DNA of 32,000 nt from an uncultured Bacilli bacterium (GTDB taxonomy: Bacteria; Bacillota_I; Bacilli_A; RF39; UBA660). Location of the stretch: the NCBI GenBank assembly GCA_934096315.1, contig CAKOLT010000006.1:13083-45082 (forward strand), written 5' to 3'. Below the pieces are notes generated by a model. That model worked only from the letters and a program-made list of their open reading frames with translations, was not told where the DNA came from and did not search any database. Shown here piece after piece: positions 12,796-32,000 of this stretch (the first letter of the stretch is position 1; every line of letters begins with the position of its first letter). Both the position numbers and the translations under genes were made by a program.

Positions 12796-13821
12796 TTATT
12801 TTATAAACATAGAGTCTCCAAAAGAGAAAAATCTATACTTATTTTCTACTGCACTTTTATAAGCATTTAGTATTATATCTCTTGAGGTAAAGGCACTAAC
12901 TAACATTATTAAAGTTGATTTTGGTAAATGGAAATTAGTAATTATTCCTTGTACCGCTTTAAACTTGTATCCAGGATATATAAATATATCAGTCCAGCCA
13001 CTTGTGGGGATAAATGAATTATATTTATTCATTACAGTCTCTAGTGTTCTGGTAGTAGTGGTACCTACAGAAATTATTTTTCTGCCTTCTTTTTGGGCTT
13101 GATTTAAAATATCTGCGGTAGTTTTTGAAATACTGAAGTACTCGCTGTGCATTTTATGCTTAGTTATATCTTCTTCTGTTACTGGTCTAAATGTACCTAT
13201 TCCCACGTGAAGTGTTATATAGCATATTGTTACACCTTTATCAGATATTTGTTTTAATAATTCTTTTGTGAAATGAAGTCCAGCGGTAGGAGCTGCAACA
13301 CTTCCGACATTTTTCGCATATACAGTCTGGTATCTATCTTTATCTTTTAGTTTTTCTTTGATATATGGAGGAAGGGGCATACTACCTAGTTTATCTAGTA
13401 TTTCCATTAAAATTCCATCATATATTAATTCAAACTCTTTGATACCATCTTCTTCTTCTTTTATACATTTTGCTTCAAGTAATCCTGATCCGAAGGATAC
13501 AATTGTACCTACTTTAACCCTTTTAGCGGGTTTAACTAGTGCTTTCCATGTTTTATCATGGACATTATTTAATAAAAGTAGTTCTATATTTGCTAAGGTA
13601 TCTTTTTTTATACCTATTATTCTTGCGGGTAATACCTTGGTATCATTAAGTACAAGGATATCACCCTTATTTAAATAGTTAATAATATTTTTAAATTTTT
13701 CATGTTTTATTTCTCCAGAAGTTTTGTCTAGAACCATTAATTTAGAGTCATCCCTATTTTCAAGGGGAGATTGAGCAATTAATTCTGGAGGTAAGTTATA
13801 ATCAAAATCTTCTATATTCAT
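12796..13821 (-). CDS. queA: S-adenosylmethionine:tRNA ribosyltransferase-isomerase
   Basis: [40 protein letters not shown] and [12 protein letters not shown] motifs. The track start (13842) is a TTG; the ATG at 13821 (MNIEDFDY) has AAAGAGGA 7 nt upstream. Confidence 0.93.
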
Positions 13822-22042: not shown

Positions 22043-23692
22043 TTATTCGAAGTAACTTCCTCCGATGAATTCTCTTAATATAGATGTGTCTGGTACAGCA
22101 TCACTTGGAATTGGTAATACATACTGAAGCAAATCTATTAGTCTAAGTGCAGTGTCATAGGCTGGATCATCTTGTTTTACAGAAAATAGTAGTGGTTCTG
22201 CATATGTTTTTAAGACTCCGAGTTCGTATGCTAGAGAGGAGTTGAATATTTCATCACATACATCTTGGAATGGGAAGACATATTTTTCTTCTCCCTTTCT
22301 AACGTCTTGCCATGTATTTATGGTATGTGTTGGAGTGTATCCTCGTACTCTGTTATCTCTTACTATTCTTCTAAGTAATCTAATATCAGTCATATTTATT
22401 CTGTTATCATTGTCTATATTTAAATATGCAAGAGGGCTTATATATATTTTGTATTTTCTTTTTTTAGGGATATCTTTAAGTAATTCTTCGTTTAAGGCAT
22501 GTAGTCCCTCAATAATTAGGATGTCATTACTTCCTAGTTGCATATTTTTATTATATGTTTTTTTACCTGTAATGAAATCATAGGTAGGTATTGTTACTTT
22601 GTTTCCTTTTAATAGTTTAGTTATTTGATTATTGAATAGTTTAACGTCAATAGCTCTTAGGCTTTCGTAGTCTGGTTTACCATTTTCATCTAGAGGGGTA
22701 TCTTCTCTATTTAAGAAGTAGTCATCTAGTGATAATGGTTTAGGGTTTAGTCCTAGTGTTTTTAGGTATAGAGCTAGTTTCTTAGAGGTTGTAGTTTTTC
22801 CTGAAGATGAGGGACCTGATAGTAGTACTACTTTTATGTCTTCTTTATTTAAGACTATTTTTTCCGCAATACTAAGGAGTTTATAGTCTTGTATTATTTC
22901 TGATAGTTTTACTACTTCCCCACTTTTACTTGCTATTATTAAGTCATCTAGGTCTCCGACGGTGTTCATGTTTAAGACATTACCCCAGCTGGAGTATTCT
23001 TCAATTGCTTTAAAGTATTTTTCATGATGGGTGTATTTAACTATTTTACCATTATCATACATAGAGGGAAATCTTAATACTATTCCTTTTTCTAAAAGTG
23101 TTAAGTCATAGTATTTAAGATAACTACTGTCATAGGGAAGGTCTCCGAGAATATAGTCATACATACCATCAAATTTATATAGTGTTATAAATTTAGCAGT
23201 GTCATAACATAATGTTTTTACTTTGTCTAATCTATTTATGTTTTTAAAGTAGTTTATCGCCTCCATACGGGATGTTTCTATTTTTTGGAAGGGAATTGCC
23301 TTGTTAATCATTTCATCCATTATTTCTTTTATTTTAGGGATATCTTTTTTGTCTAGGGGGGCTTCTATTTCATAGTATACTCCCTTATCAATAGAGTGCC
23401 TTACTCTAAAAGAGATGTCCTTTCCGTAATATTTTAAGATAGCTCTTTTAAAGAGGATGGATAATCCTTTTTCGTATAACATATTACCTCTTTTGGTATT
23501 TATGTCATAAAGTTGTAGGGTACCACTTTTTTCTATAGCGTCATCACACCCGATAAATTGGTTTTTAAATTTACCACTTATAATATCAAATTTATATTCT
23601 TTTTTTACATCATTTATAATGTCTAGGAATTTTATTCCTTTTCGGTATTCTTTCTTTTTACCGTTTTCAAAAGTTATAGTTATTGTATCCAT
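22043..23692 (-). CDS. uridine kinase-family nucleoside kinase fused to a ThrRS-like N-terminal (TGS/second additional) region
   Basis: P-loop LLSGPSSSGKTTTSKKLA, ILIIEGLHALN, RRIVRDNRVRG (uridine kinase/PRK family). The N-terminus ITITFENGKKKEY is TGS-like. I prefer the ATG at 23692 (MDTITI, with AAGGGG 7 nt upstream) over the track start at 23731. Confidence 0.8.
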   Translation of the reverse strand: MDTITITFENGKKKEYRKGIKFLDIINDVKKEYKFDIISGKFKNQFIGCDDAIEKSGTLQLYDINTKRGNMLYEKGLSILFKRAILKYYGKDISFRVRHSIDKGVYYEIEAPLDKKDIPKIKEIMDEMINKAIPFQKIETSRMEAINYFKNINRLDKVKTLCYDTAKFITLYKFDGMYDYILGDLPYDSSYLKYYDLTLLEKGIVLRFPSMYDNGKIVKYTHHEKYFKAIEEYSSWGNVLNMNTVGDLDDLIIASKSGEVVKLSEIIQDYKLLSIAEKIVLNKEDIKVVLLSGPSSSGKTTTSKKLALYLKTLGLNPKPLSLDDYFLNREDTPLDENGKPDYESLRAIDVKLFNNQITKLLKGNKVTIPTYDFITGKKTYNKNMQLGSNDILIIEGLHALNEELLKDIPKKRKYKIYISPLAYLNIDNDNRINMTDIRLLRRIVRDNRVRGYTPTHTINTWQDVRKGEEKYVFPFQDVCDEIFNSSLAYELGVLKTYAEPLLFSVKQDDPAYDTALRLIDLLQYVLPIPSDAVPDTSILREFIGGSYFE

Positions 23693-23715
23693 AATATAAC
23701 CCCTTTCTATTTTAT

Positions 23716-25467
23716 TTATTTTATATACCATACTTCATTTATGTTAACACTCTGACTATTAGGAGCTGGGTTTGGTTTATCCATTTTAACAATAACTGGT
23801 ATTTTAAAGGCATTACCAAATATCATACATACCCCAGGATTTAGACTTTTAATCATTCTGATTTCTCCTTCACTTACGTCTGGAATGATATCAGAGACGA
23901 ATTTTAGGTCTTTTGGGTGAAACATTTTAAAGACTAAGAAGTTACTGCACTGACTTACGGCAGTCTCACTTAATTCAAATGGTCTTTGGCTAATTAGTCC
24001 TAGAATACATCCATATTTTCTTCCTTCTTTGGCTATTCTATCAAAGATATTGTATCCGAGGATATTTACGTCTATATCATTTTGGACATATCTATGGGCT
24101 TCTTCTAAGACTATGTGGAATGGTAGACTACCTCTTATTTTTAATTTAGCTATATAGTCAAAGAGTATTCTAGAGTATATTTTAACTAGTCCTTTAGCAA
24201 ATCTATCATCTACATAGTTTATGTTGAAGTTAATTACTTGGGCTTTATTTCCTGTTCTTGAAGTTAATAACATTTTGATATATCCATCCATATCTATATA
24301 TCTATCAAAGTTAAAGTATATAGCATAATCTCCCTTACAAAGGGTATATAGTCTTATTTTAAGAACGTTTGCATAGTTATATACTTTATCACTATTGAAT
24401 ATACCTTCACTAATTAGGGCAAACTCTAATGAGTAATAGAAGTCATCCATGGTATACATATAACTACCACTAGGAAGAACAAGAGGTATATCAAAGTTTT
24501 CGAACTTCTCTAGGTATTTAATTATTAATTCTATGTCTGCAAACCTACCACCTTCTTCAATAGATATACACTGTCTAAAGGTTCTAACCCATCCCCCTTT
24601 ACTTAATTTTATATCTAAGTTTATTTCTCCGGTTTGAAACTTTGTTAGTATAGATATTATTTTATTTCTAGCTTCACTTACATTCTTACTTGAGAATATT
24701 GTATCAAGGAGGCTCTTAGCTATTATACTGTTTTTATAGTTATCAATACTAGCATCTTCACTTGCAAAGTAGTTTACATATTTAAGGGCTTTTTCTATTA
24801 TGGGTAGTTGTCTAACATCATCTACTCCGAGAAGAATAGCTATATCATCAGCATTTAGTAACCAAAATGGTATTATTAGTTTTTCGTTTTCAGTGTCATT
24901 TAGGTTAGTGGTATATACTTTATAGTTTATGTTTTCATTAGTACTTCCTATTTCTTTGAAGGCTTGTTGGTATTCACCATAAGCATCAAAGAGGAATATA
25001 TTAGTTCTAAAGGGAAGGTATTTAGCTTCGTAGAAGATACTTTGTAGTATCTTTGCTACAGAGTAGCTTTTACCACTTCCTGTATTACCTAGTATAGAAA
25101 AGTGGTTGGAGAAAAAGCTATTTACATTCATATTTATGTTATAGTCATTATATATATAACTAGTACCTAGTTTTATATAATTGTCATTACTACTAGTGGA
25201 ATATACTATATCTAATTCTTCTTTAGTTATTAATCTTACCTCGCTATTAAAACTAGGGGGTACAATACTTCCATAAATAAATTTACCATTTTCAAATAGT
25301 CCGATTAGTTTAATGGTTAAGTGTTCTGTATCTACATTACTAATAGTACCTACGATAGTATTATTAAATACTACATACTTACCATTAACATTACCTATTT
25401 CATATATATTAATACTTAGTTTTACTTTAACTATAGTGTCTTCAACACTTATTATATTACCTAACAT
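23716..25467 (-). CDS. HerA/FtsK-like (DUF87) P-loop ATPase
   Basis: 583 aa. N-terminal HAS-barrel-like beta region, Walker A ILGNTGSGKSYSV, Walker B FHIVLEEAHRYV, GLISQRP sensor block. Confidence 0.8.
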   Translation of the reverse strand: MLGNIISVEDTIVKVKLSINIYEIGNVNGKYVVFNNTIVGTISNVDTEHLTIKLIGLFENGKFIYGSIVPPSFNSEVRLITKEELDIVYSTSSNDNYIKLGTSYIYNDYNINMNVNSFFSNHFSILGNTGSGKSYSVAKILQSIFYEAKYLPFRTNIFLFDAYGEYQQAFKEIGSTNENINYKVYTTNLNDTENEKLIIPFWLLNADDIAILLGVDDVRQLPIIEKALKYVNYFASEDASIDNYKNSIIAKSLLDTIFSSKNVSEARNKIISILTKFQTGEINLDIKLSKGGWVRTFRQCISIEEGGRFADIELIIKYLEKFENFDIPLVLPSGSYMYTMDDFYYSLEFALISEGIFNSDKVYNYANVLKIRLYTLCKGDYAIYFNFDRYIDMDGYIKMLLTSRTGNKAQVINFNINYVDDRFAKGLVKIYSRILFDYIAKLKIRGSLPFHIVLEEAHRYVQNDIDVNILGYNIFDRIAKEGRKYGCILGLISQRPFELSETAVSQCSNFLVFKMFHPKDLKFVSDIIPDVSEGEIRMIKSLNPGVCMIFGNAFKIPVIVKMDKPNPAPNSQSVNINEVWYIK

Positions 25468-25548
25468 ATTTTGTATCCTTTCTTTATATATTATATATAA
25501 GTATATAAGGCCACAGGAGGTTAGAGTCCTCCTTTGTCCTTATATTTA

Positions 25549-26568
25549 CTATGAGCATGTGTCACATCCAAGGGTATATGGGTTATCAAAGGAACCGCCT
25601 CCTCCGGTTACATAGACACTGGATTTTAGATAGAAGGTGGGGCGGGCGGCAGGAGGAACGTTCGTGCTATAGCGATACACGTCGCCAGAACTGACGCGCC
25701 ACACGCGATTCGAGCCAGAAGCATAAGGTGTTATTGTCCACTCATATCCTTTATATAACCAATTATTATTTCCAAAGTAATGTGCACTTTGAGTTGTTGT
25801 ATCAGAACTTGAGTAATAACCACTTGCGTATAGGTAATCACTTAAGTACATTAGACCTACTGGAGCGTCTGTTGTAGGACTGTAAGAACCTGATTTTGCA
25901 GAGGTACAAGAGTTTCCTCCTCTTTCACATAAGTACCAGTTTTGTTTACTCTGGTCTGTACCACTACCGTATAGGTACCACGTTACTGTTTCTATATAAC
26001 TTCTTAGGTTATCTGCTATTCCATAGCCTACTATAGGAGTGCAGTTATTAGTCCTATAATTAGTATTACTACTATAGTATGTCCAAGTACTACAATTACC
26101 ATAGGTATCTGATATATCCTTTTTATTATAAAAGTATTCATTAAGTAAAATATTAAGGTTTCCTCCTACCCAATTGTTGTTATACTCAGAGTATGTACCA
26201 CTAGTATTTGAACTATTACGTACTCCCCAAGAATATCCTCCAAGAGAACGGGCTCTAATTAATTTAACCATTTCTACTCCTGTTTTACCATGGGAATTAG
26301 AATCAAAGACTCCTATTATACGATACATATCATTATTAAACTTAACATAGTTATTAACTTCTGCTCCTACATATCTATATTCATGAGAATTAGTATAGTA
26401 TACTCCACTAGCCCCACTTGACCAACTAGAGCCTTTATTTAAGGCTTTAACTGTATCTACTAGAGTTGTGCCTACGGCATAACTCTTTTTAGAGTTTACC
26501 TGAAATACTACTATAACAAGTGTAACTAGTATTAAAGATACTATTATAATTATTTTCTTTTTACTCAT
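25549..26568 (-). CDS. DGR variable protein 2 (signal-anchored, C-type-lectin-like C-terminal domain carrying VR1)
   Basis: 339 aa. N-terminal anchor IIIIVSLILVTLVIVVF. The body is almost identical to the C-terminal 300 aa of the 28960..31416 protein. VR1 encodes ASGSNRVWRVSSGDVYRYSTNVPPAARP near the C-terminus. Confidence 0.85.
   Translation of the reverse strand: MSKKKIIIIVSLILVTLVIVVFQVNSKKSYAVGTTLVDTVKALNKGSSWSSGASGVYYTNSHEYRYVGAEVNNYVKFNNDMYRIIGVFDSNSHGKTGVEMVKLIRARSLGGYSWGVRNSSNTSGTYSEYNNNWVGGNLNILLNEYFYNKKDISDTYGNCSTWTYYSSNTNYRTNNCTPIVGYGIADNLRSYIETVTWYLYGSGTDQSKQNWYLCERGGNSCTSAKSGSYSPTTDAPVGLMYLSDYLYASGYYSSSDTTTQSAHYFGNNNWLYKGYEWTITPYASGSNRVWRVSSGDVYRYSTNVPPAARPTFYLKSSVYVTGGGGSFDNPYTLGCDTCS
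25640..25722 (-). repeat. DGR variable repeat VR1
   Basis: Gap-free 83-nt alignment to the TR. 18 differences fall at TR adenines (coding strand) and 3 at non-adenine positions. It ends in the GC-only run GCCGCCCGCCCC. Confidence 0.9.
25723..26103 (-). repeat. 381-bp segment identical to 29119..29499 (copy A)
   Basis: A base-by-base read shows no mismatch over 381 bp directly abutting the VR. Identity decays beyond 26104/29500 and downstream of the VR. Confidence 0.85.
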
Positions 26569-26849
26569 TCATTACCATTCCTCTCATTTAATTTCTTATT
26601 TATATTATTTAAAATATAGGCTAGTTTATATTTTAAATAATATAAATTATACTTATTATCCACATACTCTTTCTTATGTACATTTAAGTTATCAATTACT
26701 ATATAGTTAATATGATACTCCCTTAATTTATCTATCTTTTTAAAGTTTACTCTTTTATCATTTATATAAGTATATAACTTACCTTTCTTTGCTATTAATA
26801 TTACATAGTTATTATACCACAGTTTAGCCATATTGTATCTATTTTTCAT
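26565..26849 (-). CDS. hypothetical 94-aa protein translationally coupled to DGR target 2
   Basis: ATG preceded by AAGGGAG (6-nt spacing). The stop overlaps the target-2 start (ATGA). Lys/Asn/Tyr-rich, no TM segment, no recognised family. Confidence 0.5.
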   Translation of the reverse strand: MKNRYNMAKLWYNNYVILIAKKGKLYTYINDKRVNFKKIDKLREYHINYIVIDNLNVHKKEYVDNKYNLYYLKYKLAYILNNINKKLNERNGNE

Positions 26850-26877
26850 ATCTTACTCCCTTGTTATGTGTCTTGTA

Positions 26878-26899
26878 GGGACTTTATAAATAAAGTCCC
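26878..26899 (-). other. perfect 10-bp hairpin in the noncoding segment 3' of the TR
   Basis: GGGACTTTAT AA ATAAAGTCCC. It lies about 100 nt downstream (- strand) of the TR and about 30 nt upstream of orf94. No U-run follows, so it is not a canonical terminator. Confidence 0.45.
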
Positions 26900-27002
26900 G
26901 TCCACATACTGTCTTTAGGGTTTAACCCAAGGATAGTCTATGTTACTTATATCTATCAAAGTATATCCTTAAACATACAGTCTCCCAAATATAAGAAGCT
27001 AA

Positions 27003-27085
27003 GGGCGGGCGGCATTAGGATTGTTCGTGTTATTTTTATTGACGTTGCCATTACTGACGTTCCACGCATTATTCGAGTCAGAAGC
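27003..27085 (-). repeat. DGR template repeat (TR)
   Basis: Noncoding, 24 nt downstream of the RT stop. In the VR frame it reads ASDSNNAWNVSNGNVNKNNTNNPNAARP, with 11 AAY codons and 28 adenines. It ends in GCCGCCCGCCC, matching both VRs. Confidence 0.9.
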
Positions 27086-27109
27086 CCATTAAAGACTACC
27101 CTATAATAG

Positions 27110-27967
27110 TTAGTTATATCTATCTATTATATTATTTATCTTTTCTCTATTATATTTAAATGTATATTTATAGTTATTTACACTACTAAATCTCTTCTCA
27201 AAGGTTATATAACCTTTGAGAAATAATTTCTTGTTTTTTCTAGTAGTTCTTTTTATCTTATTCATAGTCTCTGATCTTAAGTTCACTATGGTTTTATTAT
27301 TTATTACTCTATACCTATAACTTAGAAATACAAACCCTTCTTTAGAACTTACTATCATAGTCTTTTTCTTATTTATTTTTAATTTATATTCATTTAAGAG
27401 TATAAATTCTATTTCCTTTAGACACTTCTTTAAATACTCTTTATCTGGGTGCATTAATATATAATCATCCATATAGACTACTAGATGCTTTATTTTTAGT
27501 TTATGTACTATATAATTATGTAATTTATATAGATAGAATATAGCAAGAAACTGATTGGACAAGAGTCCAATGGATAATCCTTTACCTTTGTTATACAAAG
27601 GTAAAGAGTTTATCTCATCCCTATGGGATGGGTTTCTTTCGGATTCCTTCTCCTTAAGTTTTATTATAGTATCATTTACATAACCTTGGTTAGTGGACTC
27701 TAGTATTAAGTTTAGATATCTATATTCTTCTTTAGTAACTTTATCTTTAATAAGACTCTTTAATACTTCATGGTCTATATTATAGAAATATTTAGATATA
27801 TCTAACTTAAGTATATAGAATTTATTATTTCTTTTTTCTTCTTCTAGATACTTCATAACTAATTTATGAGCATAACTAGAACCCATACCCTTTCTAGTGG
27901 CAACATTCCTAATGTCTAAATACCTTGATAAGAAATATATTGTATTTAGGCATTGGTATGGTGCCAC
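27110..27967 (-). CDS. DGR-type reverse transcriptase, main (C-terminal) reading frame
   Basis: RT motifs ATRKGMGSSYA (motif 2), YILKLDISKYFYNIDHEVL (3), GLSIGLLSNQFLAIFYL (4, the DGR-like I-G-x-x-x-S-Q region), VVYMDDYILM (5, YxDD) and KINKKKTMIVSSKEGFVFLSYRY (6/7). It has no ATG start and continues from the 27909..28106 frame after a 1-nt shift. Confidence 0.85.
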   Translation of the reverse strand: MAPYQCLNTIYFLSRYLDIRNVATRKGMGSSYAHKLVMKYLEEEKRNNKFYILKLDISKYFYNIDHEVLKSLIKDKVTKEEYRYLNLILESTNQGYVNDTIIKLKEKESERNPSHRDEINSLPLYNKGKGLSIGLLSNQFLAIFYLYKLHNYIVHKLKIKHLVVYMDDYILMHPDKEYLKKCLKEIEFILLNEYKLKINKKKTMIVSSKEGFVFLSYRYRVINNKTIVNLRSETMNKIKRTTRKNKKLFLKGYITFEKRFSSVNNYKYTFKYNREKINNIIDRYN

Positions 27968-28106
27968 TTTCTATATTCTCATTAATTGAGGTTATGTATT
28001 CCATTTTCTGTGTTTCAAACTCATATAACCTTCTTTTGTTCTTTGCTTTCTTACATAACTCTTTTTCGTATATGTCTAATAACCTCTGGAGATTAACATT
28101 ATTCAT
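27909..28106 (-). CDS. N-terminal fragment of the DGR reverse transcriptase (separate frame)
   Basis: 65 aa, MNNVNLQRLLDIYEKELCKKAKNKRRLYEFE...IESGTIPMPKYNIFLI, like the usual DGR RT N-terminus (L..A...A.KGK ... G.Y.P..Y..F.I). It stops at 27909-27911 and overlaps the avd stop by 8 nt. Confidence 0.7.
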   Translation of the reverse strand: MNNVNLQRLLDIYEKELCKKAKNKRRLYEFETQKMEYITSINENIESGTIPMPKYNIFLIKVFRH

Positions 28107-28443
28107 TTGCTTTTATCCATCCCCTTGTTATTTTATTAATCTCTGTTAATTTATTGGTTCTTTCTTTAAGTTGTTTTTGACTAATATATTTATATATATA
28201 CATTCTCTCTAAGTAGAAGTCTACAACTTTAAGGCTTACTATTACTAATTCTTGTAAATGTAATCTTCTTTCTTTATCTGCCTTTATTAAGTTAGCATTA
28301 TAAATATTTCTTAATATATTAAGTAGTTCTTCTCTAATTTGATCTCTATTATATAAATCTTTTTTGGGGATATTCTCTAAAAGAGGTTCCATAGTTAATA
28401 TAAATTCTTTTACTTTCTTAGCTAGTATAAAGTTATCATCCAT
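28099..28443 (-). CDS. avd: Avd-like accessory variability determinant (four-helix-bundle protein)
   Basis: 114 aa, basic and all-helical by composition. LAKKVKEFILTMEPLLENIPKKDLYNRDQIREELLNILRNI resembles the Avd / four-helix-bundle family (F..l...lp..e...l..Q.). It lies immediately upstream of, and overlapping, the RT. Confidence 0.7.
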   Translation of the reverse strand: MDDNFILAKKVKEFILTMEPLLENIPKKDLYNRDQIREELLNILRNIYNANLIKADKERRLHLQELVIVSLKVVDFYLERMYIYKYISQKQLKERTNKLTEINKITRGWIKANE

Positions 28444-28873
28444 GAATAATCACGTCTTCGATAACAGTTAATATTTTCTTTAGAGTCTCTTCACTTTCAA
28501 TATTGTAAATTTTATTTACAATATTGTCTACTCTTTCTTTATTTTCCATTTGTATTAGTGCCTTTTTTAATATCTTGTAATAATTATTTAAATTCTTAAA
28601 GTTTACGGTTACTGGTTCGTGGTCTCTATATAGTATGGAATAGTTTATTTTGTGTTTTTCTAAGGCGTTTACTACTTTATTTAGTGATGTTTCAGGAAAG
28701 CCCACGGTGCCAGTGAAACTTATTTTATACCCAAAGAGATAGTTTAATATTTTACTATCATCATTATACGAACTGAAAAAGGCACCATTTTTATAGACAC
28801 GCAAAACCCCCTTATTATTCTCTCTCTGTTCGCTCGCTCTCTCTGTTCGCTCGCTCTCTCTGAGAGCGTCCAA
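28436..28873 (-). CDS. MutS domain-I-like small accessory protein
   Basis: VLRVYKNGAFFSSYNDDSKILNYLFGYKISFTG..TVGFPETSLNKVVNALEKHKINYSIL parallels the MutS N-terminal mismatch-binding domain ([32 protein letters not shown]...[25 protein letters not shown]). The track start is a TTG and the N-terminus is uncertain. Confidence 0.55.
   Translation of the reverse strand: MDALRESERTERASEQRENNKGVLRVYKNGAFFSSYNDDSKILNYLFGYKISFTGTVGFPETSLNKVVNALEKHKINYSILYRDHEPVTVNFKNLNNYYKILKKALIQMENKERVDNIVNKIYNIESEETLKKILTVIEDVIIHG
28822..28868. repeat. GC-rich 17-bp tandem repeat (2.4 copies) ending in a 7-bp palindrome
   Basis: CTCTCTGTTCGCTCGCT at 28822-28838 and 28839-28855, then CTCTCTG. CGCTCTC (28852-28858) pairs with GAGAGCG (28862-28868) around a 3-nt loop. 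Confidence 0.8.
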
Positions 28874-28959
28874 TATCTTTTTCTTCTTTCATTTTTAATC
28901 ATTCCTTTCTTGGTCAAGGAAGAGTAAACCCTTCCCTGCCCATTTATTTTTTATATTAT

Positions 28960-31416
28960 TTATTCTATTACATATGGGTCATCAATTGTTCCGTCTCCCC
29001 CGAGTATTGAGACTGTAGATTTTAGATATAAGGTAGGGCGGGCGGCATAAGGAGGGTTCGTGGCATAGTCATTCACGTAGCCACTACTGACGTGCCACAC
29101 GCGAATCGAGGCAGAAGCATAAGGTGTTATTGTCCACTCATATCCTTTATATAACCAATTATTATTTCCAAAGTAATGTGCACTTTGAGTTGTTGTATCA
29201 GAACTTGAGTAATAACCACTTGCGTATAGGTAATCACTTAAGTACATTAGACCTACTGGAGCGTCTGTTGTAGGACTGTAAGAACCTGATTTTGCAGAGG
29301 TACAAGAGTTTCCTCCTCTTTCACATAAGTACCAGTTTTGTTTACTCTGGTCTGTACCACTACCGTATAGGTACCACGTTACTGTTTCTATATAACTTCT
29401 TAGGTTATCTGCTATTCCATAGCCTACTATAGGAGTGCAGTTATTAGTCCTATAATTAGTATTACTACTATAGTATGTCCAAGTACTACAATTACCATAT
29501 GTATCTGATGTATCCTTTTTATTATAAAAATATTCATTAAGTAAGATATTAAGGTTTCCTCCTACCCAATTATTGTTATAACTAGAGTAAGTACCACTAG
29601 TATTTGAGGAGTTATGATTACCCCATGAATATCCTCCAAGAGGATTAGCCATTATTAACTTAACTAAATAACCATCTTTACCATGAGAATTAGAGTCAAA
29701 GACTCCTATTATTTGATACATATCATTATTAAACCAGACATAGTTTTTAGGTTCTGCTCCTATATATCTATATTCATGGTATTTCACTGTACCATCAGTA
29801 TCAGTATACTTATTAGTAGCATATAATCCTTCTGCCCCTGACTCCCATGTATCTCCTTGATTTAACTTAATAATCTTACTTACGGCATTTTCTTTAATAG
29901 ATACTTTCTTATAATATTTATATCTATTACCATTATTGTCTTCTAAAACATATATAGCATTAACAGAACCATTAATACTCTCTGATGTAGCTGGTTTAAC
30001 TAATACTATCTTACAACCTGTTCCATTGTCTTTACAAGTAACTAGGTCTTTTAAGGCTACTATTGGTTCTTTTTCTATACCTACACTACTTGTATCTATA
30101 CTTGGAACAGTAGATGATAATGTTGTAGAAGTTATCCTTGCATAACCATTACCAGAGTGTCCTGTTTCACTTGTTCCTGATGTACCTGTAAAGGAAGTAT
30201 TTCCTCCCACTGTAGCGGCATCTGTTAAGTAATAACTACTAGTTAATTTAACACCTGATGGATAGTTTGAGGCTGTACTAGAAGTATATACATATCCAGA
30301 ACCTCCTCCACCGGCATAGTTTTCGGAAGACCCTCCAGTACCACCGTACCATCCACTTCCACCACCACCACATTCTCCACTAGAATATGTAGCATTTCCA
30401 CCACTACCAAAACTAGAACCAGATGTTGATGTTCCTCCAGACATACTTCCAGCTCCTCCAGAGGTACCTCCTCCATAGCCACCATTAGCATCATCAGAAC
30501 CTCCGCCTCCGCCTCCAGCGACTATTACTCTGGAATAGAGATTATCTTCAGATATTCTAATATCAGAGGCTCCTCCGCCTCCACCACCATTGTGACTTGT
30601 ACCATTCCAAGCAACTCCAGAACCTCCGCCATTAAATCCTCCAGCAAGGGTTGCTTCCGAACTAAAAGAACCATCATCGTTTGTTCCTTGACCCCCTACA
30701 TAGATAAATATATTAGTATCTTTTGTTAGTGTAAGTGTTCCATAACTATAACCACCCATTCCCCCCGGATGTGATGATGAACCTCCACCTTGAGCACCCC
30801 ATACTTCTAATTTATGGGTACCACTTTTAAGTGTAGCTGTTTGCACTGCTCCAGTATAATTATAATCAGTAGTAGTTGTTTTTGTCTCTGTCCCACCTTC
30901 AGGTACATTTCCTGTATTAAATGTCTCTGTAACAATATATTTACCTTGTTCTAACCCTAACTCATTAGAGTCTGCTCCTGCTACTCCAATATTTATGGTT
31001 ATTTCACTACTGGTATTATTTATTATTAATAATTCTACTGGTAATTTCTCGTCATTATTAATAGTACCTACTGTAGGGTTAGTACTCCAGTCTATTTTAT
31101 AAATTCCTATATCATCACTTTTAGTACTAGGATTAACCATTTCATAAAATACTCCGTAGTAAATACTTTTACCAGTATCATTGGATACATTAACTATTAC
31201 TGATCTATTGTTTCCTGCGGATACTTTAACTTGTTTATATTCAAACACCTTTAGGGTTGTTTGTATATCACTTGCACTCTTCATGGTTATTATATCTTTA
31301 GTGGTAGTCTTCTCTAAGGAGAAGAGTGCAAATGATGAGTACATACATAGGGATAGTATCCCTATGATTATTATTAGTAATAAATAGTTTTCTTTTATCA
31401 TATATCTATCTTTCAT
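28960..31416 (-). CDS. DGR variable protein 1 (anchor + beta module + ALK/LTK-type glycine-rich domain + lectin-like domain with VR2)
   Basis: 818 aa. GGAGG lies 6 nt before the ATG. N-terminal TM helix LLLIIIIGILSLCMY. Residues about 184-430 are glycine-rich (LEVWGAQGGG, IFIYVGGQG, GGGGGGASDIRI, RVIVAGGGGGG). The C-terminal 300 aa are paralogous to 25549..26568. VR2 encodes ASASIRVWHVSSGYVNDYATNPPYAARP. Confidence 0.85.
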   Translation of the reverse strand: MKDRYMIKENYLLLIIIIGILSLCMYSSFALFSLEKTTTKDIITMKSASDIQTTLKVFEYKQVKVSAGNNRSVIVNVSNDTGKSIYYGVFYEMVNPSTKSDDIGIYKIDWSTNPTVGTINNDEKLPVELLIINNTSSEITINIGVAGADSNELGLEQGKYIVTETFNTGNVPEGGTETKTTTTDYNYTGAVQTATLKSGTHKLEVWGAQGGGSSSHPGGMGGYSYGTLTLTKDTNIFIYVGGQGTNDDGSFSSEATLAGGFNGGGSGVAWNGTSHNGGGGGGASDIRISEDNLYSRVIVAGGGGGGSDDANGGYGGGTSGGAGSMSGGTSTSGSSFGSGGNATYSSGECGGGGSGWYGGTGGSSENYAGGGGSGYVYTSSTASNYPSGVKLTSSYYLTDAATVGGNTSFTGTSGTSETGHSGNGYARITSTTLSSTVPSIDTSSVGIEKEPIVALKDLVTCKDNGTGCKIVLVKPATSESINGSVNAIYVLEDNNGNRYKYYKKVSIKENAVSKIIKLNQGDTWESGAEGLYATNKYTDTDGTVKYHEYRYIGAEPKNYVWFNNDMYQIIGVFDSNSHGKDGYLVKLIMANPLGGYSWGNHNSSNTSGTYSSYNNNWVGGNLNILLNEYFYNKKDTSDTYGNCSTWTYYSSNTNYRTNNCTPIVGYGIADNLRSYIETVTWYLYGSGTDQSKQNWYLCERGGNSCTSAKSGSYSPTTDAPVGLMYLSDYLYASGYYSSSDTTTQSAHYFGNNNWLYKGYEWTITPYASASIRVWHVSSGYVNDYATNPPYAARPTLYLKSTVSILGGDGTIDDPYVIE
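29036..29118 (-). repeat. DGR variable repeat VR2
   Basis: Gap-free 83-nt alignment to the TR. 15 differences fall at TR adenines, plus the same 3 non-adenine differences seen in VR1. Confidence 0.9.
29119..29499 (-). repeat. 381-bp segment identical to 25723..26103 (copy B)
   Basis: Same as copy A; constant offset of 3396 nt. Confidence 0.85.
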
Positions 31417-31443
31417 CTAATTACCTCCGTAGTATCTATAATA

Positions 31444-31472
31444 ATTATAGCATATGAAATAATAAAACACAA
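31444..31472 (-). promoter_or_regulatory. candidate sigma-A promoter of DGR target 1
   Basis: - strand TTGTGT (31467-31472), 17-nt spacer, TATAAT (31444-31449), then GGAGG (31424-31428) and the ATG at 31416. The -35 element lies inside the upstream terminator arm. Confidence 0.4.
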
Positions 31473-31504
31473 GAAAATTGAAAATATTTTTCTTGTGTTT
31501 TATT
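31461..31504. terminator. strong hairpin terminator (17-bp stem)
   Basis: AATAAAACACAAGAAAA (31461-31477) pairs perfectly with TTTTCTTGTGTTTTATT (31488-31504). T/A-runs on both sides insulate the DGR from the upstream gene. Confidence 0.7.
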
Positions 31505-31611
31505 ATTTAGTAATTATCTATAATACCTACTGAGGTAAAATATTGTAAATGTTATACTAAGTATTAACTATTATATCTATGGTTATACCATGTATAGTAT
31601 AAATTAAAATT

Positions 31612-31636
31612 AGACCCATATAATATATATGGATCT
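31612..31636 (-). terminator. putative terminator after the Rpn-tail-like gene
   Basis: 11-bp stem (AGATCCATATA / TATATGGGTCT on the - strand, one G-U pair), 3-nt loop, followed by AATTTTAATTT. Confidence 0.45.
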
Positions 31637-31673
31637 ATGTAGAGATAAATTTTATTTTAATTAATAAGTTTTA

Positions 31674-31967
31674 CTATTTTATGTTATTTATTTCTGCTAC
31701 TGTATGACCTGTAATTTTAGATATTATTTTTTCGTCTAGTCCTTCTTTTAGCATAGCTTTTATTGTTTTTACTGCCTCAGCTTGTTTTCCTTTTTCTATT
31801 CCTTGTTCTATACCTTGTTCTATTCCTTGTTCTATACCTTCCCTAAGTCCTTTTTTTCTTGCTTCCTCGGCAAAGTATTCTCTTTCCTCTCTAGCTAGTT
31901 TCTCTTGGTCATAGGGATTTATACAAACATTACTATTTTTATATTCCTCAAAGTAATCACTAAACAT
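31674..31967 (-). CDS. small protein resembling the C-terminal tail of Rpn/YhgA-like (PD-(D/E)XK transposase-like) proteins
   Basis: 97 aa. Strong RBS AAGGAGG 6 nt before the ATG. REGIEQGIEQGIEQGIEKGK...AVKTIKAMLKEGLDEKIISKITGHTVAEINNI is the repeat plus helix-turn-helix-like tail typical of Rpn-family C-termini. The nuclease domain is absent. Confidence 0.55.
   Translation of the reverse strand: MFSDYFEEYKNSNVCINPYDQEKLAREEREYFAEEARKKGLREGIEQGIEQGIEQGIEKGKQAEAVKTIKAMLKEGLDEKIISKITGHTVAEINNIK
31789..31848. repeat. 12-bp in-frame tandem repeat (GIEQ units)
   Basis: CCTTGTTCTAT(A/T) three times at 31801-31836, flanked by degenerate copies. Encodes (E/K)QGI repeats. Confidence 0.8.
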
Positions 31968-32000
31968 TTTAACCTCCTTATCATATCTTCCATCCTCTGT

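Follow-up and report, generated by a model that had tools for sequence, protein, structure and literature searches.

A chromosomal diversity-generating retroelement with a split reverse transcriptase gene and two target genes in an uncultured gut bacterium of the Bacilli

Does a diversity-generating retroelement (DGR) that has kept its template, its accessory genes and its targets still diversify these targets when its reverse transcriptase (RT) gene is split? This question is raised by positions 25549-31416 of a 32,000-nt stretch of DNA from an uncultured gut bacterium of the Bacilli (GTDB lineage Bacteria; Bacillota_I; Bacilli_A; RF39; UBA660), namely, positions 13,083 to 45,082 of contig CAKOLT010000006.1 of assembly GCA_934096315.1, which is referred to here as the window. 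An earlier note had read this interval as a cellular DGR with all of its defining parts on one strand. The DGR parts were indeed all found on the minus strand, in the order 818-aa target gene, msl, avd, two RT fragments, a 260-nt gap that contains the template repeat (TR), a 94-aa open reading frame (ORF), and a 339-aa target gene. The analysis presented here leads to an explanation that is held with considerable confidence, namely, that the locus is a decayed, vertically inherited chromosomal DGR with Avd and Msl proteins, in which the RT has been destroyed by a 95-nt deletion and the variable repeats (VRs) are frozen.

Repeats and reverse transcriptase family

A repeat finder returned a single three-copy family of 84-nt repeats, at 25639-25722, 27002-27085 and 29035-29118, which were assigned as follows:

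27002-27085, minus strand: TR, 84 nt, non-coding, from repeat comparison
25639-25722, minus strand: VR1, variable repeat in the downstream target, from adenine-site mismatches to the TR
29035-29118, minus strand: VR2, variable repeat in the upstream target and in frame with its ORF, from adenine-site mismatches to the TR

The degenerate pattern obtained by masking the TR adenines occurs at exactly 3 sites in the 32 kb, with 0 expected by chance. The TR is intergenic, starts 24 nt past the RT stop codon and, read on the minus strand, contains 28 adenines in 84 nt, of which 27 fall at codon positions 1-2 of the VR frame; AAY codons number 11. Both VRs lie in frame near the 3' ends of the target ORFs, about 90 nt ahead of the stop codons. 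The non-coding TR and the two VRs near the 3' ends of paralogous genes described in the earlier note are thus recovered as three 84-nt copies, two of them in paralogous targets.

Alignment of the repeats also bears out the proposed adenine bias. In VR1, the mismatches to the TR affect 18 of the 28 adenines and 4 of the 56 other bases (Fisher p = 5e-8), and the corresponding values for VR2 are 15/28 and 3/56 (Fisher p = 1e-6). A comparison of VR1 with VR2 shows 16 differences, of which 15 are at TR-adenine positions and one is at a boundary base. Immediately upstream of the VRs, the paralogues share 381 nt at 100% identity (25723-26103 versus 29119-29499), whereas the 90 nt 3' of the VRs are divergent. 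The adenine-site differences, together with identical upstream and divergent downstream flanks, show that VR1 and VR2 were each rewritten on their own from a common template, the defining sign of mutagenic retrohoming.

The 3' end of the TR is formed by the GC-rich GCCGCCCGCCC at 27003-27013, which is common to both VRs. Directly 3' of GCCGCCCGCCC the sequences part, with TTAGCTTCTTAT in the TR and CACCTTCTATC or TACCTTATATC in the VRs. This boundary is as expected for an element similar to IMH/IMH* (initiation of mutagenic homing), and this is its putative function. The search for a hairpin or cruciform downstream of the VRs returned none beyond chance (z = 0.44 and 1.74).

A separate observation concerns the 381-nt identical tract, in which a C/T single-nucleotide polymorphism (SNP) is present at both 25782 and 29178, equivalent positions of the two paralogues (offset 3396). 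These two are among the few SNPs that separate near-identical assemblies of the strain, and their match suggests either that gene conversion between the paralogues is still taking place or that the repeats have affected the assembly.

The RT family was established by profile comparison: the Bordetella phage RT (bRT, 8ub7) was matched with an E value of 9e-27, as compared to 1e-11 for the best group II intron RT, which agrees with the placement suggested earlier. Motif 4 reads IGLLSNQ, that is, IGxxxNQ with the change of S to N that characterizes this sub-clade, and more distant members contain IGxxxSQ, as in IGNMTSQ; the published DGR RT signature is [I/V/L]GxxxSQ. Other RT models matched weakly, with 58 bits for the group II model TIGR04416 (cut-off 300) and at most 62 bits for the DRT/UG models of PADLOC, and an Rfam scan of 25000-32000 gave nothing significant.

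The weak and generic NCBIfam and PADLOC matches are what could be put forward for a non-DGR origin, in which paralogue duplication or gene conversion produced the repeats beside an unrelated RT of a retron, a group II intron or a defence system. However, the mismatches are adenine specific in both VRs (p about 1e-6 or lower), the middle copy is non-coding and of AAY codon design, the RT profile favours bRT by 15 orders of magnitude, an Avd protein is encoded adjacent to the RT, and VRs of relatives differ between samples at adenine sites only. The mismatch spectrum, the TR design, the RT profile, Avd and the VRs of relatives together refute this origin, to which a negligible probability is assigned. 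On this evidence, the locus is a genuine chromosomal DGR, of a type common in gut bacteria, that targeted two membrane-anchored paralogues.

Lesion of the reverse transcriptase gene and present state of the element

The RT gene does not form one ORF but is represented by the following features:

27909-28106, minus strand: N-terminal fragment of the RT pseudogene, 65 aa, with an out-of-frame tail VFRH followed by a stop, from ORF and alignment
27110-27967, minus strand: C-terminal fragment of the RT pseudogene, 285 aa, containing motifs 3-7 and the thumb, from RVT_1 and alignment
27923-27931, minus strand: deletion junction at which a single 9-nt copy TTATCAAGG is kept, from DNA comparison with locus L006

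The two fragments are in different frames, and the 285-aa fragment contains YMDD and IGLLSNQ. It was matched by Pfam RVT_1 at 9e-12, over HMM (hidden Markov model) positions 53-204 only, and its homology to intact RTs begins at about 27922. A search with the joined fragments retrieved RT homologues of 361-365 aa. The segment DPKYRIIMSVSIYDKLINHYYSKMVLDKKLSK, present in all ten intact homologues aligned, is missing from the window RT. The closest relative, P0001 on L006, is an intact RT, the DNA of which is 96.3-96.6% identical to that of the window (95% for the protein). At the position of the junction, L006 has TTATCAAGG, 86 nt and TTATCAAAG, with the starts of the two repeats 95 nt apart. 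With respect to L006, the window has therefore a net loss of 95 nt between imperfect 9-nt direct repeats, and the retention of a single 9-nt copy is the signature of a slippage deletion. The loss removes 32 residues, comprising finger motifs 1-2, and shifts the frame.

These 32 residues are present in 86 of the 86 related loci that could be aligned there (of 87 loci retrieved). The lost PKxRxI...DKxxxH finger motifs comprise 10 invariant and 7 nearly invariant columns in 11 intact family members. According to profile alignment, the lost segment corresponds to bRT residues ~70-102, a stretch with the EPKPRLI...DRLVQH motifs and with Arg74, which has been shown to promote adenine mutagenesis and is predicted to interact with the incoming deoxynucleoside triphosphate. 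The RT of the 87 related loci is a single ORF in 84 and a single long ORF in 2 more, and is split in L007 only. It follows from the deletion and frameshift that autonomous diversification at the present day is very unlikely; the window RT is, as judged from its gene, a pseudogene and the DGR currently non-autonomous. The claim that all defining parts are present hence does not hold, and that of an RT with YMDD and a DGR-like motif 4 holds for the motifs, which are on the 285-aa fragment, and fails for an intact enzyme.

The split could also be an assembly or sequencing artefact, or the deletion could be tolerated, in which cases the DGR would be fully functional and autonomous. The remaining RT does keep YMDD and a DGR-type motif 4, and the sister strain that harbours P0001 on L006 has an intact RT with a 95% identical protein. 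However, the exact 285-aa product was found in 6 contigs, and the 65 plus 285 split recurs in contigs that come from three or more samples and follow two naming styles, which makes an artefact of assembly very unlikely. Furthermore, the lesion is a 95-nt deletion and not a homopolymer error, and the conserved finger motifs are gone along with the counterpart of bRT Arg74. A fully functional element is therefore considered highly improbable.

An independent RT lesion in the same region was observed in L007, a Hadza gut metagenome contig (9960-10000). One C is gone from a CCC run (GACCCTAAG to GACCTAAG), splitting the RT into 66 and 296 aa, and this lesion is present in 5 contigs. The L007 TR has at least 5 non-adenine mismatches that are common to both VRs.

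The TR of the window has changed as well. Both VRs share 3 non-adenine mismatches to the TR, at TR positions 18, 20 and 45, and the TR of L006 has the VR-type base at all three. If the C shared by both VRs at TR position 51 is ancestral, this is probably a fourth changed site. Due to these shared mismatches, neither VR is an exact copying product of the TR as it now stands, which would have changed at three, probably four, non-adenine positions since the last homing over the full length. This drift would fit a stalled element without proving one. In a direct comparison, the TR of the window (27002-27085) and that of L006 (1255-1338) differ at 7 of 84 positions, whereas the RNA 3' of the TR is near-identical and the RT shows an identity of about 96.5%; evolution of the TR is therefore faster than that of the sequence around it.

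An element that lacks an RT of its own may nevertheless be active in trans, namely, if the RT (and Avd) of a second paralogous DGR in the same genome serves the TR RNA and the VRs. Seven related metagenome-assembled genomes (MAGs) have 2-3 loci of the RT family each, examples being CAKOSA01 (L008, L009) and CANRHS01 (L037, L053, L060), and L008 and L009, which reside in one MAG, have almost the same RNA sequence in the flank downstream of the TR. In addition, msl, avd, the 94-aa ORF, the TR, the RNA scaffold and both targets are intact in the window. On the other hand, a second RT was seen neither in the 32-kb window nor in the 45-62 kb contigs of the strain, neither VR has been fully rewritten since the TR changed, as both share the 3 non-adenine differences from it, and the use of the TR of another DGR by a heterologous RT is not known for this RT family. 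Activity in trans is thus judged decidedly unlikely, and a decayed element with frozen VRs is the preferred explanation.

Several points weigh against decay and have to be taken into account. The evidence for a loss of activity is the gene lesion. The accessory genes, TR, RNA scaffold and both target ORFs are still intact, from which it follows that the inactivation of the RT is either recent or compensated. TR drift alone is not diagnostic, because L009, which has an intact RT ORF, contains 3 non-adenine TR/VR mismatches in its downstream VR, and L008 has more of these than L009. The fold assigned to the targets, an enlarged C-type-lectin-like and DUF6273-like one, is taken from a medium-confidence model. 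Invariance of the VRs as a sign of inactivity was considered and dropped: the VRs are identical across 5-6 near-clonal assemblies of the strain (consensus sequences), but a sister clone with an intact RT is equally invariant.

Related loci and the other parts of the cassette

A related RT is encoded at 423 or more loci in species-representative genomes, nearly all of them animal-gut MAGs labelled as uncultured Bacilli, Tenericutes, Clostridiales or 'CAG', often with 2-3 loci per MAG. The closest RT among GTDB representatives, which do not include the species of the window, is 76-78% identical to the window RT. A tblastn search detected the msl-avd-RT core in essentially all of the 87 related loci, and the set and layout of accessory genes, considered unusual in the earlier note, are therefore not so; they match the published Architecture D described below. 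The two-target layout with a small ORF was found in the closest relatives, amid spoVA, rnf, proS and similar genes. In a sister lineage, the same site contains the large target, msl, avd, an intact RT of 364 aa, the small ORF, the small target and HerA.

Evidence for activity within the family comes from L001, L002 and L004, which belong to one species and come from different samples. They have the same RT protein, and Avd and RT together show 0-3 differences in 1426 nt, whereas their VRs differ at 14-20 of 87 positions. In aligned VRs of this species, it is the TR adenines that differ, with 0-2 non-adenine mismatches to the TR. Adenine-site VR differences between samples with near-identical Avd and RT imply that the family is active in nature. 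An automated TR/VR scan of all loci returned pairs in about 25; it over-counts non-adenine mismatches at the edges and was excluded from the statistics.

Loci L105-L114 (17 contigs with P0164, from several cohorts), which represent this chromosomal site in a sister lineage, with HerA downstream, were compared with L095-L104 and found to have their targets 30 nt apart, the 2.5-kb core, that is, msl-avd-RT-TR-small-ORF, being absent. In this coreless lineage, the VR of the large target differs from a related TR at 19 of 27 adenines and at 6-7 of 57 other positions, and this adenine bias indicates that the core was lost after having been active. Decay and loss of the core while the targets are kept is thus a recurrent event, of which the window is one case.

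The non-coding sequence that surrounds the TR is strongly conserved and contains the following predicted elements:

26865-27102, minus strand: structured DGR RNA, from RNAalifold and pair counts in 14 loci
27093-27102 with 26930-26939, minus strand: 10-bp duplex bracketing the TR, from covariation
26918-26928, minus strand: short stem-loop and then an adenine run, right after the duplex, from RNAalifold
26991-26997 with 26944-26950, and 26972-26983 with 26958-26967, minus strand: two helices just 3' of the TR, from covariation
26903-26908 with 26865-26870, minus strand: distal hairpin, from covariation

In the duplex, the sequence just 5' of the TR pairs with a site about 60 nt 3' of it. Across the 14 loci, the 37 pairs in 5 helices are paired in 98.3% of cells, with compensatory changes in 15 pairs as compared to 1-4 in slid controls. 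These elements are intact in the window, where the ~190 nt 3' of the TR are identical to L006 except for one indel. They correspond to elements of the bRT-Avd-RNA complex, which contains a 'cPRT Stop' duplex, a stem-loop with A-minor adenosines and stem-loops 3' of the TR, and elements like those of the bRT RNA have been predicted in 207 of 278 Avd-containing DGRs.

The accessory genes and the repeat in the msl leader are:

28436-28873, minus strand: msl, mechanical ORF of 145 aa, MutS_I E 0.004
28099-28443, minus strand: avd, 114 aa, bAvd PF22296 2e-8 and DivGenRetAVD NF033474 7e-11
26565-26849, minus strand: conserved 94-aa ORF, its stop sharing 4 nt (ATGA) with the start of the downstream target, from related loci
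28820-28862, minus strand: perfect tandem repeat, 17 nt x 2.5, in the msl leader, from Tandem Repeats Finder

The Avd-like protein of the earlier note is confirmed by matches to Pfam bAvd and NCBIfam DivGenRetAVD that are both under the curated cut-offs, and Avd orthologues in related loci are annotated as PF22296 (precomputed). Overlaps of 8 nt each join the end of msl to the start of avd and the end of avd to the start of the RT gene. In 85 of the 87 related loci, msl precedes avd, and the true start of msl in the window is likely the TTG at 28804, preceded by AAGGGGG, which would yield a protein of 122 aa as in relatives. MutS_I was matched by 16 of 23 Msl family members (best 9e-7), and the Msl profile retrieved from the PDB only MSH6, at E 0.74. 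The mismatch-binding motif of MutS is Phe-X-Glu. At this site of Msl the Glu is replaced, the window protein reading FFS and its relatives FYN or FYS.

The 94-aa ORF is conserved in 44 related loci, and its family corresponds to 38 representative clusters in 1.84 billion proteins, nearly all of 80-113 aa. A comparison with the Msl family profile (hhalign) gave 87% probability and E 4e-6, suggesting that the ORF is probably a shortened Msl paralogue; against the PDB, the family gave only chance matches to EGFR.

The leader repeat is positioned between ATG codons preceded by Shine-Dalgarno (SD) sequences (~28892 and ~28902) and the conserved Msl core. Arrays are found at the same place in 11 close loci, with 14 nt x 2.8-4.9, 17 nt x 2.2-2.5 or 5 nt x 8-9, and none of the unit lengths (17, 14 and 5 nt) is a multiple of three. 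The 4.8 copies of L004 bring an ATG in frame with msl, giving a 164-aa product, whereas L002 of the same species has 2.8 copies, which result in a 26-aa upstream ORF and no in-frame msl start. N-gaps inside the leader array were seen in two further scaffolds. The repeat may be a phase-variable switch or merely a leader with an upstream ORF. The idea of phase variation, drawn from the comparison of L002 with L004, is a weak one. It is weakened further, although not removed, by the invariance of the repeat at 2.5 copies in ten samples of a sister clone, and two exact-pattern scans of metagenome contigs of the Joint Genome Institute found no further alleles.

A joint proposal would be that the 94-aa Msl-like ORF is a fourth cassette gene and the leader repeat a switch, with the RT-null allele as one of several off states; this is tentative and judged rather doubtful. 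If true, a change in copy number would shift the frame of the SD-preceded ATG with respect to msl, possibly also affecting the overlapping avd and RT genes, and hypermutation would be switchable. The clade would then offer a scale of off states, namely, a changed repeat, an RT with a frameshift or with a deletion, and absence of the entire cassette. In the literature searched, a 94-aa Msl-like ORF, a frame-shifting msl-leader repeat and a decay series at one site have not been described for DGRs.

The two targets are encoded at the outer ends of the locus:

28960-31416, minus strand: upstream target gene, 818 aa, from ORF, PF12810 and paralogy
25549-26568, minus strand: downstream target gene, 339 aa, with an N-terminal membrane anchor, from ORF and an AlphaFold2 (AF2) model

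The 818-aa protein consists of an N-terminal hydrophobic anchor, a glycine-rich domain and a C-terminal module of ~310 aa that is paralogous to the downstream target; the VRs are C-terminal in both. An AF2 model of target residues 30-339, obtained with 40 diverse sequences, had a predicted template modelling score (pTM) of 0.72 and a predicted local distance difference test (pLDDT) of 60.7, and the lectin-like fold is a putative one, predicted by this medium-confidence model. A run on the full 339 aa with 25 close homologues was unusable (pLDDT 34). The sole significant PDB match of the model was the cryogenic electron microscopy structure 9qa6 of the Thomasclavelia ramosa immunoglobulin A (IgA) peptidase (E 5.9e-4 over 311 aligned columns, without indication of which residues of 9qa6 are involved), and canonical C-type lectin domains matched at E > 1 only. 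The N-terminal domain of this peptidase has a C-type-lectin-like core of twice the usual size (PMC12237041). Weak sequence and fold matches of the module pointed to DUF6273 and DUF1566, the former being sub-threshold and in distant relatives. For the C-terminal module of the window protein, Pfam and NCBIfam gave no match at E up to 1, and the target profile showed no similarity to any chain among the PDB sequences.

As a side observation, residues 193-430 of the 818-aa target, upstream of the diversified module, form an ALK/LTK-type glycine-rich domain (PF12810, E 5e-46), which is also present in the 815-860-aa orthologues of related loci.

Genomic context, proposed course of events and comparison with known systems

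The cellular, not phage-borne, nature of the locus, as put forward earlier, is supported by its surroundings. The rest of the window is of housekeeping type, with a glycosyltransferase, folD, an acyl-CoA ligase-like gene, GH31, trmK and rpoD as well as dnaG, queA, dgkA, ybeY and sua5, and no phage or integrase genes were found in the 32 kb, the single phage match being nucleotidase-like.

The two neighbours named in the earlier note were both recovered. The gene directly downstream of the small target, which it also adjoins in sister lineages, encodes a HerA-type ATPase of 583 aa (PADLOC HerA model 1e-106). It overlaps by 16 nt the gene of a 562-aa protein with a uridine-kinase/PRK-like C-terminal half, the two genes together occupying 22043-25467 on the minus strand. 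The pair may be a defence-type module; of the known HerA partners, SIR2, DUF4297 and NurA, none was seen beside it. On the other side, the small gene at 31674-31967 encodes 97 aa that resemble the C-terminal part of recombination-promoting nucleases of the Rpn family (TIGR01784, 7e-9, under the cut-off). Hairpins were confirmed after this gene, namely, one of terminator-like form at 31611-31637 and, at 31457-31508, an inverted repeat with 21 perfectly matched bp. A similar small Rpn-C-like gene is found upstream of the DGR in L007.

When active, the element would have operated as follows. The msl, avd and RT genes would be translated from overlapping reading frames, and the TR would be transcribed within the structured RNA. 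By analogy with the Bordetella model, the duplex would bracket the TR and the downstream helices would place the RNA on the RT-Avd complex. The RT would copy the TR into complementary DNA (cDNA), misincorporating opposite adenines, and the cDNA would replace the VR at the 3' end of either target, with GCCGCCCGCCC marking the 3' boundary. The predicted outcome is a recoded ligand-binding face on an enlarged C-type-lectin-like surface domain. Slippage would then have deleted 95 nt, so that the element lost the ability to make cDNA by its own RT and both VRs were frozen.

As a type, the locus contributes little new to the biology of DGRs; chromosomal DGRs with Avd, Msl and two lectin-like targets are already catalogued. 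Its value consists in being a well-documented natural RT-null allele in a very large undescribed family of uncultured gut Bacilli. Intact, frameshifted, internally deleted and excised versions of the cassette can be compared, which offers a direct way to learn how frequently bacteria turn off targeted hypermutation but retain the proteins that it has diversified. Furthermore, the 94-aa Msl-like ORF and the msl-leader repeat are flagged as two candidate components.

Among known systems, the DGR of Bordetella phage BPP-1 (bRT, Avd, TR and Mtd) provides the closest solved RT (8ub7). The two have in common Avd, adenine-specific mutagenesis, a GC-rich element at the 3' end of TR and VRs, and an RNA with a TR-bracketing duplex, a stem-loop and adenosines. 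They differ in gene order, which is avd-RT-TR here as compared to avd-TR-brt in the phage, and in that the window locus is cellular and has two targets, Msl, the 94-aa ORF, a broken RT and no hairpin or cruciform detected past the VRs. The structural match of the target to the T. ramosa IgA peptidase (9qa6) concerns a protein whose IgA peptidase domain is not known as a DGR target.

The closest parallel is provided by the MSL-containing DGRs. In the survey of Wu et al. (2018, Nucleic Acids Research 46:11, PMC5758913), these form 'Architecture D', with MSL in 16 of 372 DGRs and always together with avd, and two-target cassettes account for 13% of the DGRs. Msl-encoding DGRs of Bacteroides have been described by Macadangdang et al. 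(2024, bioRxiv 10.1101/2024.11.15.621889). Like these, the locus combines avd, a small MutS-domain-I-like gene and a DGR RT, with the TR 3' of the RT, and it is chromosomal, on one strand, with more than one target and the VR at the C-terminus of a surface protein of putative lectin-like fold. It differs from them in its uncultured gut 'Bacilli' host, the 94-aa ORF, the tandem repeat in the msl leader and the RT pseudogene. Every component is of a known kind, and their combination is that of the published Architecture D.

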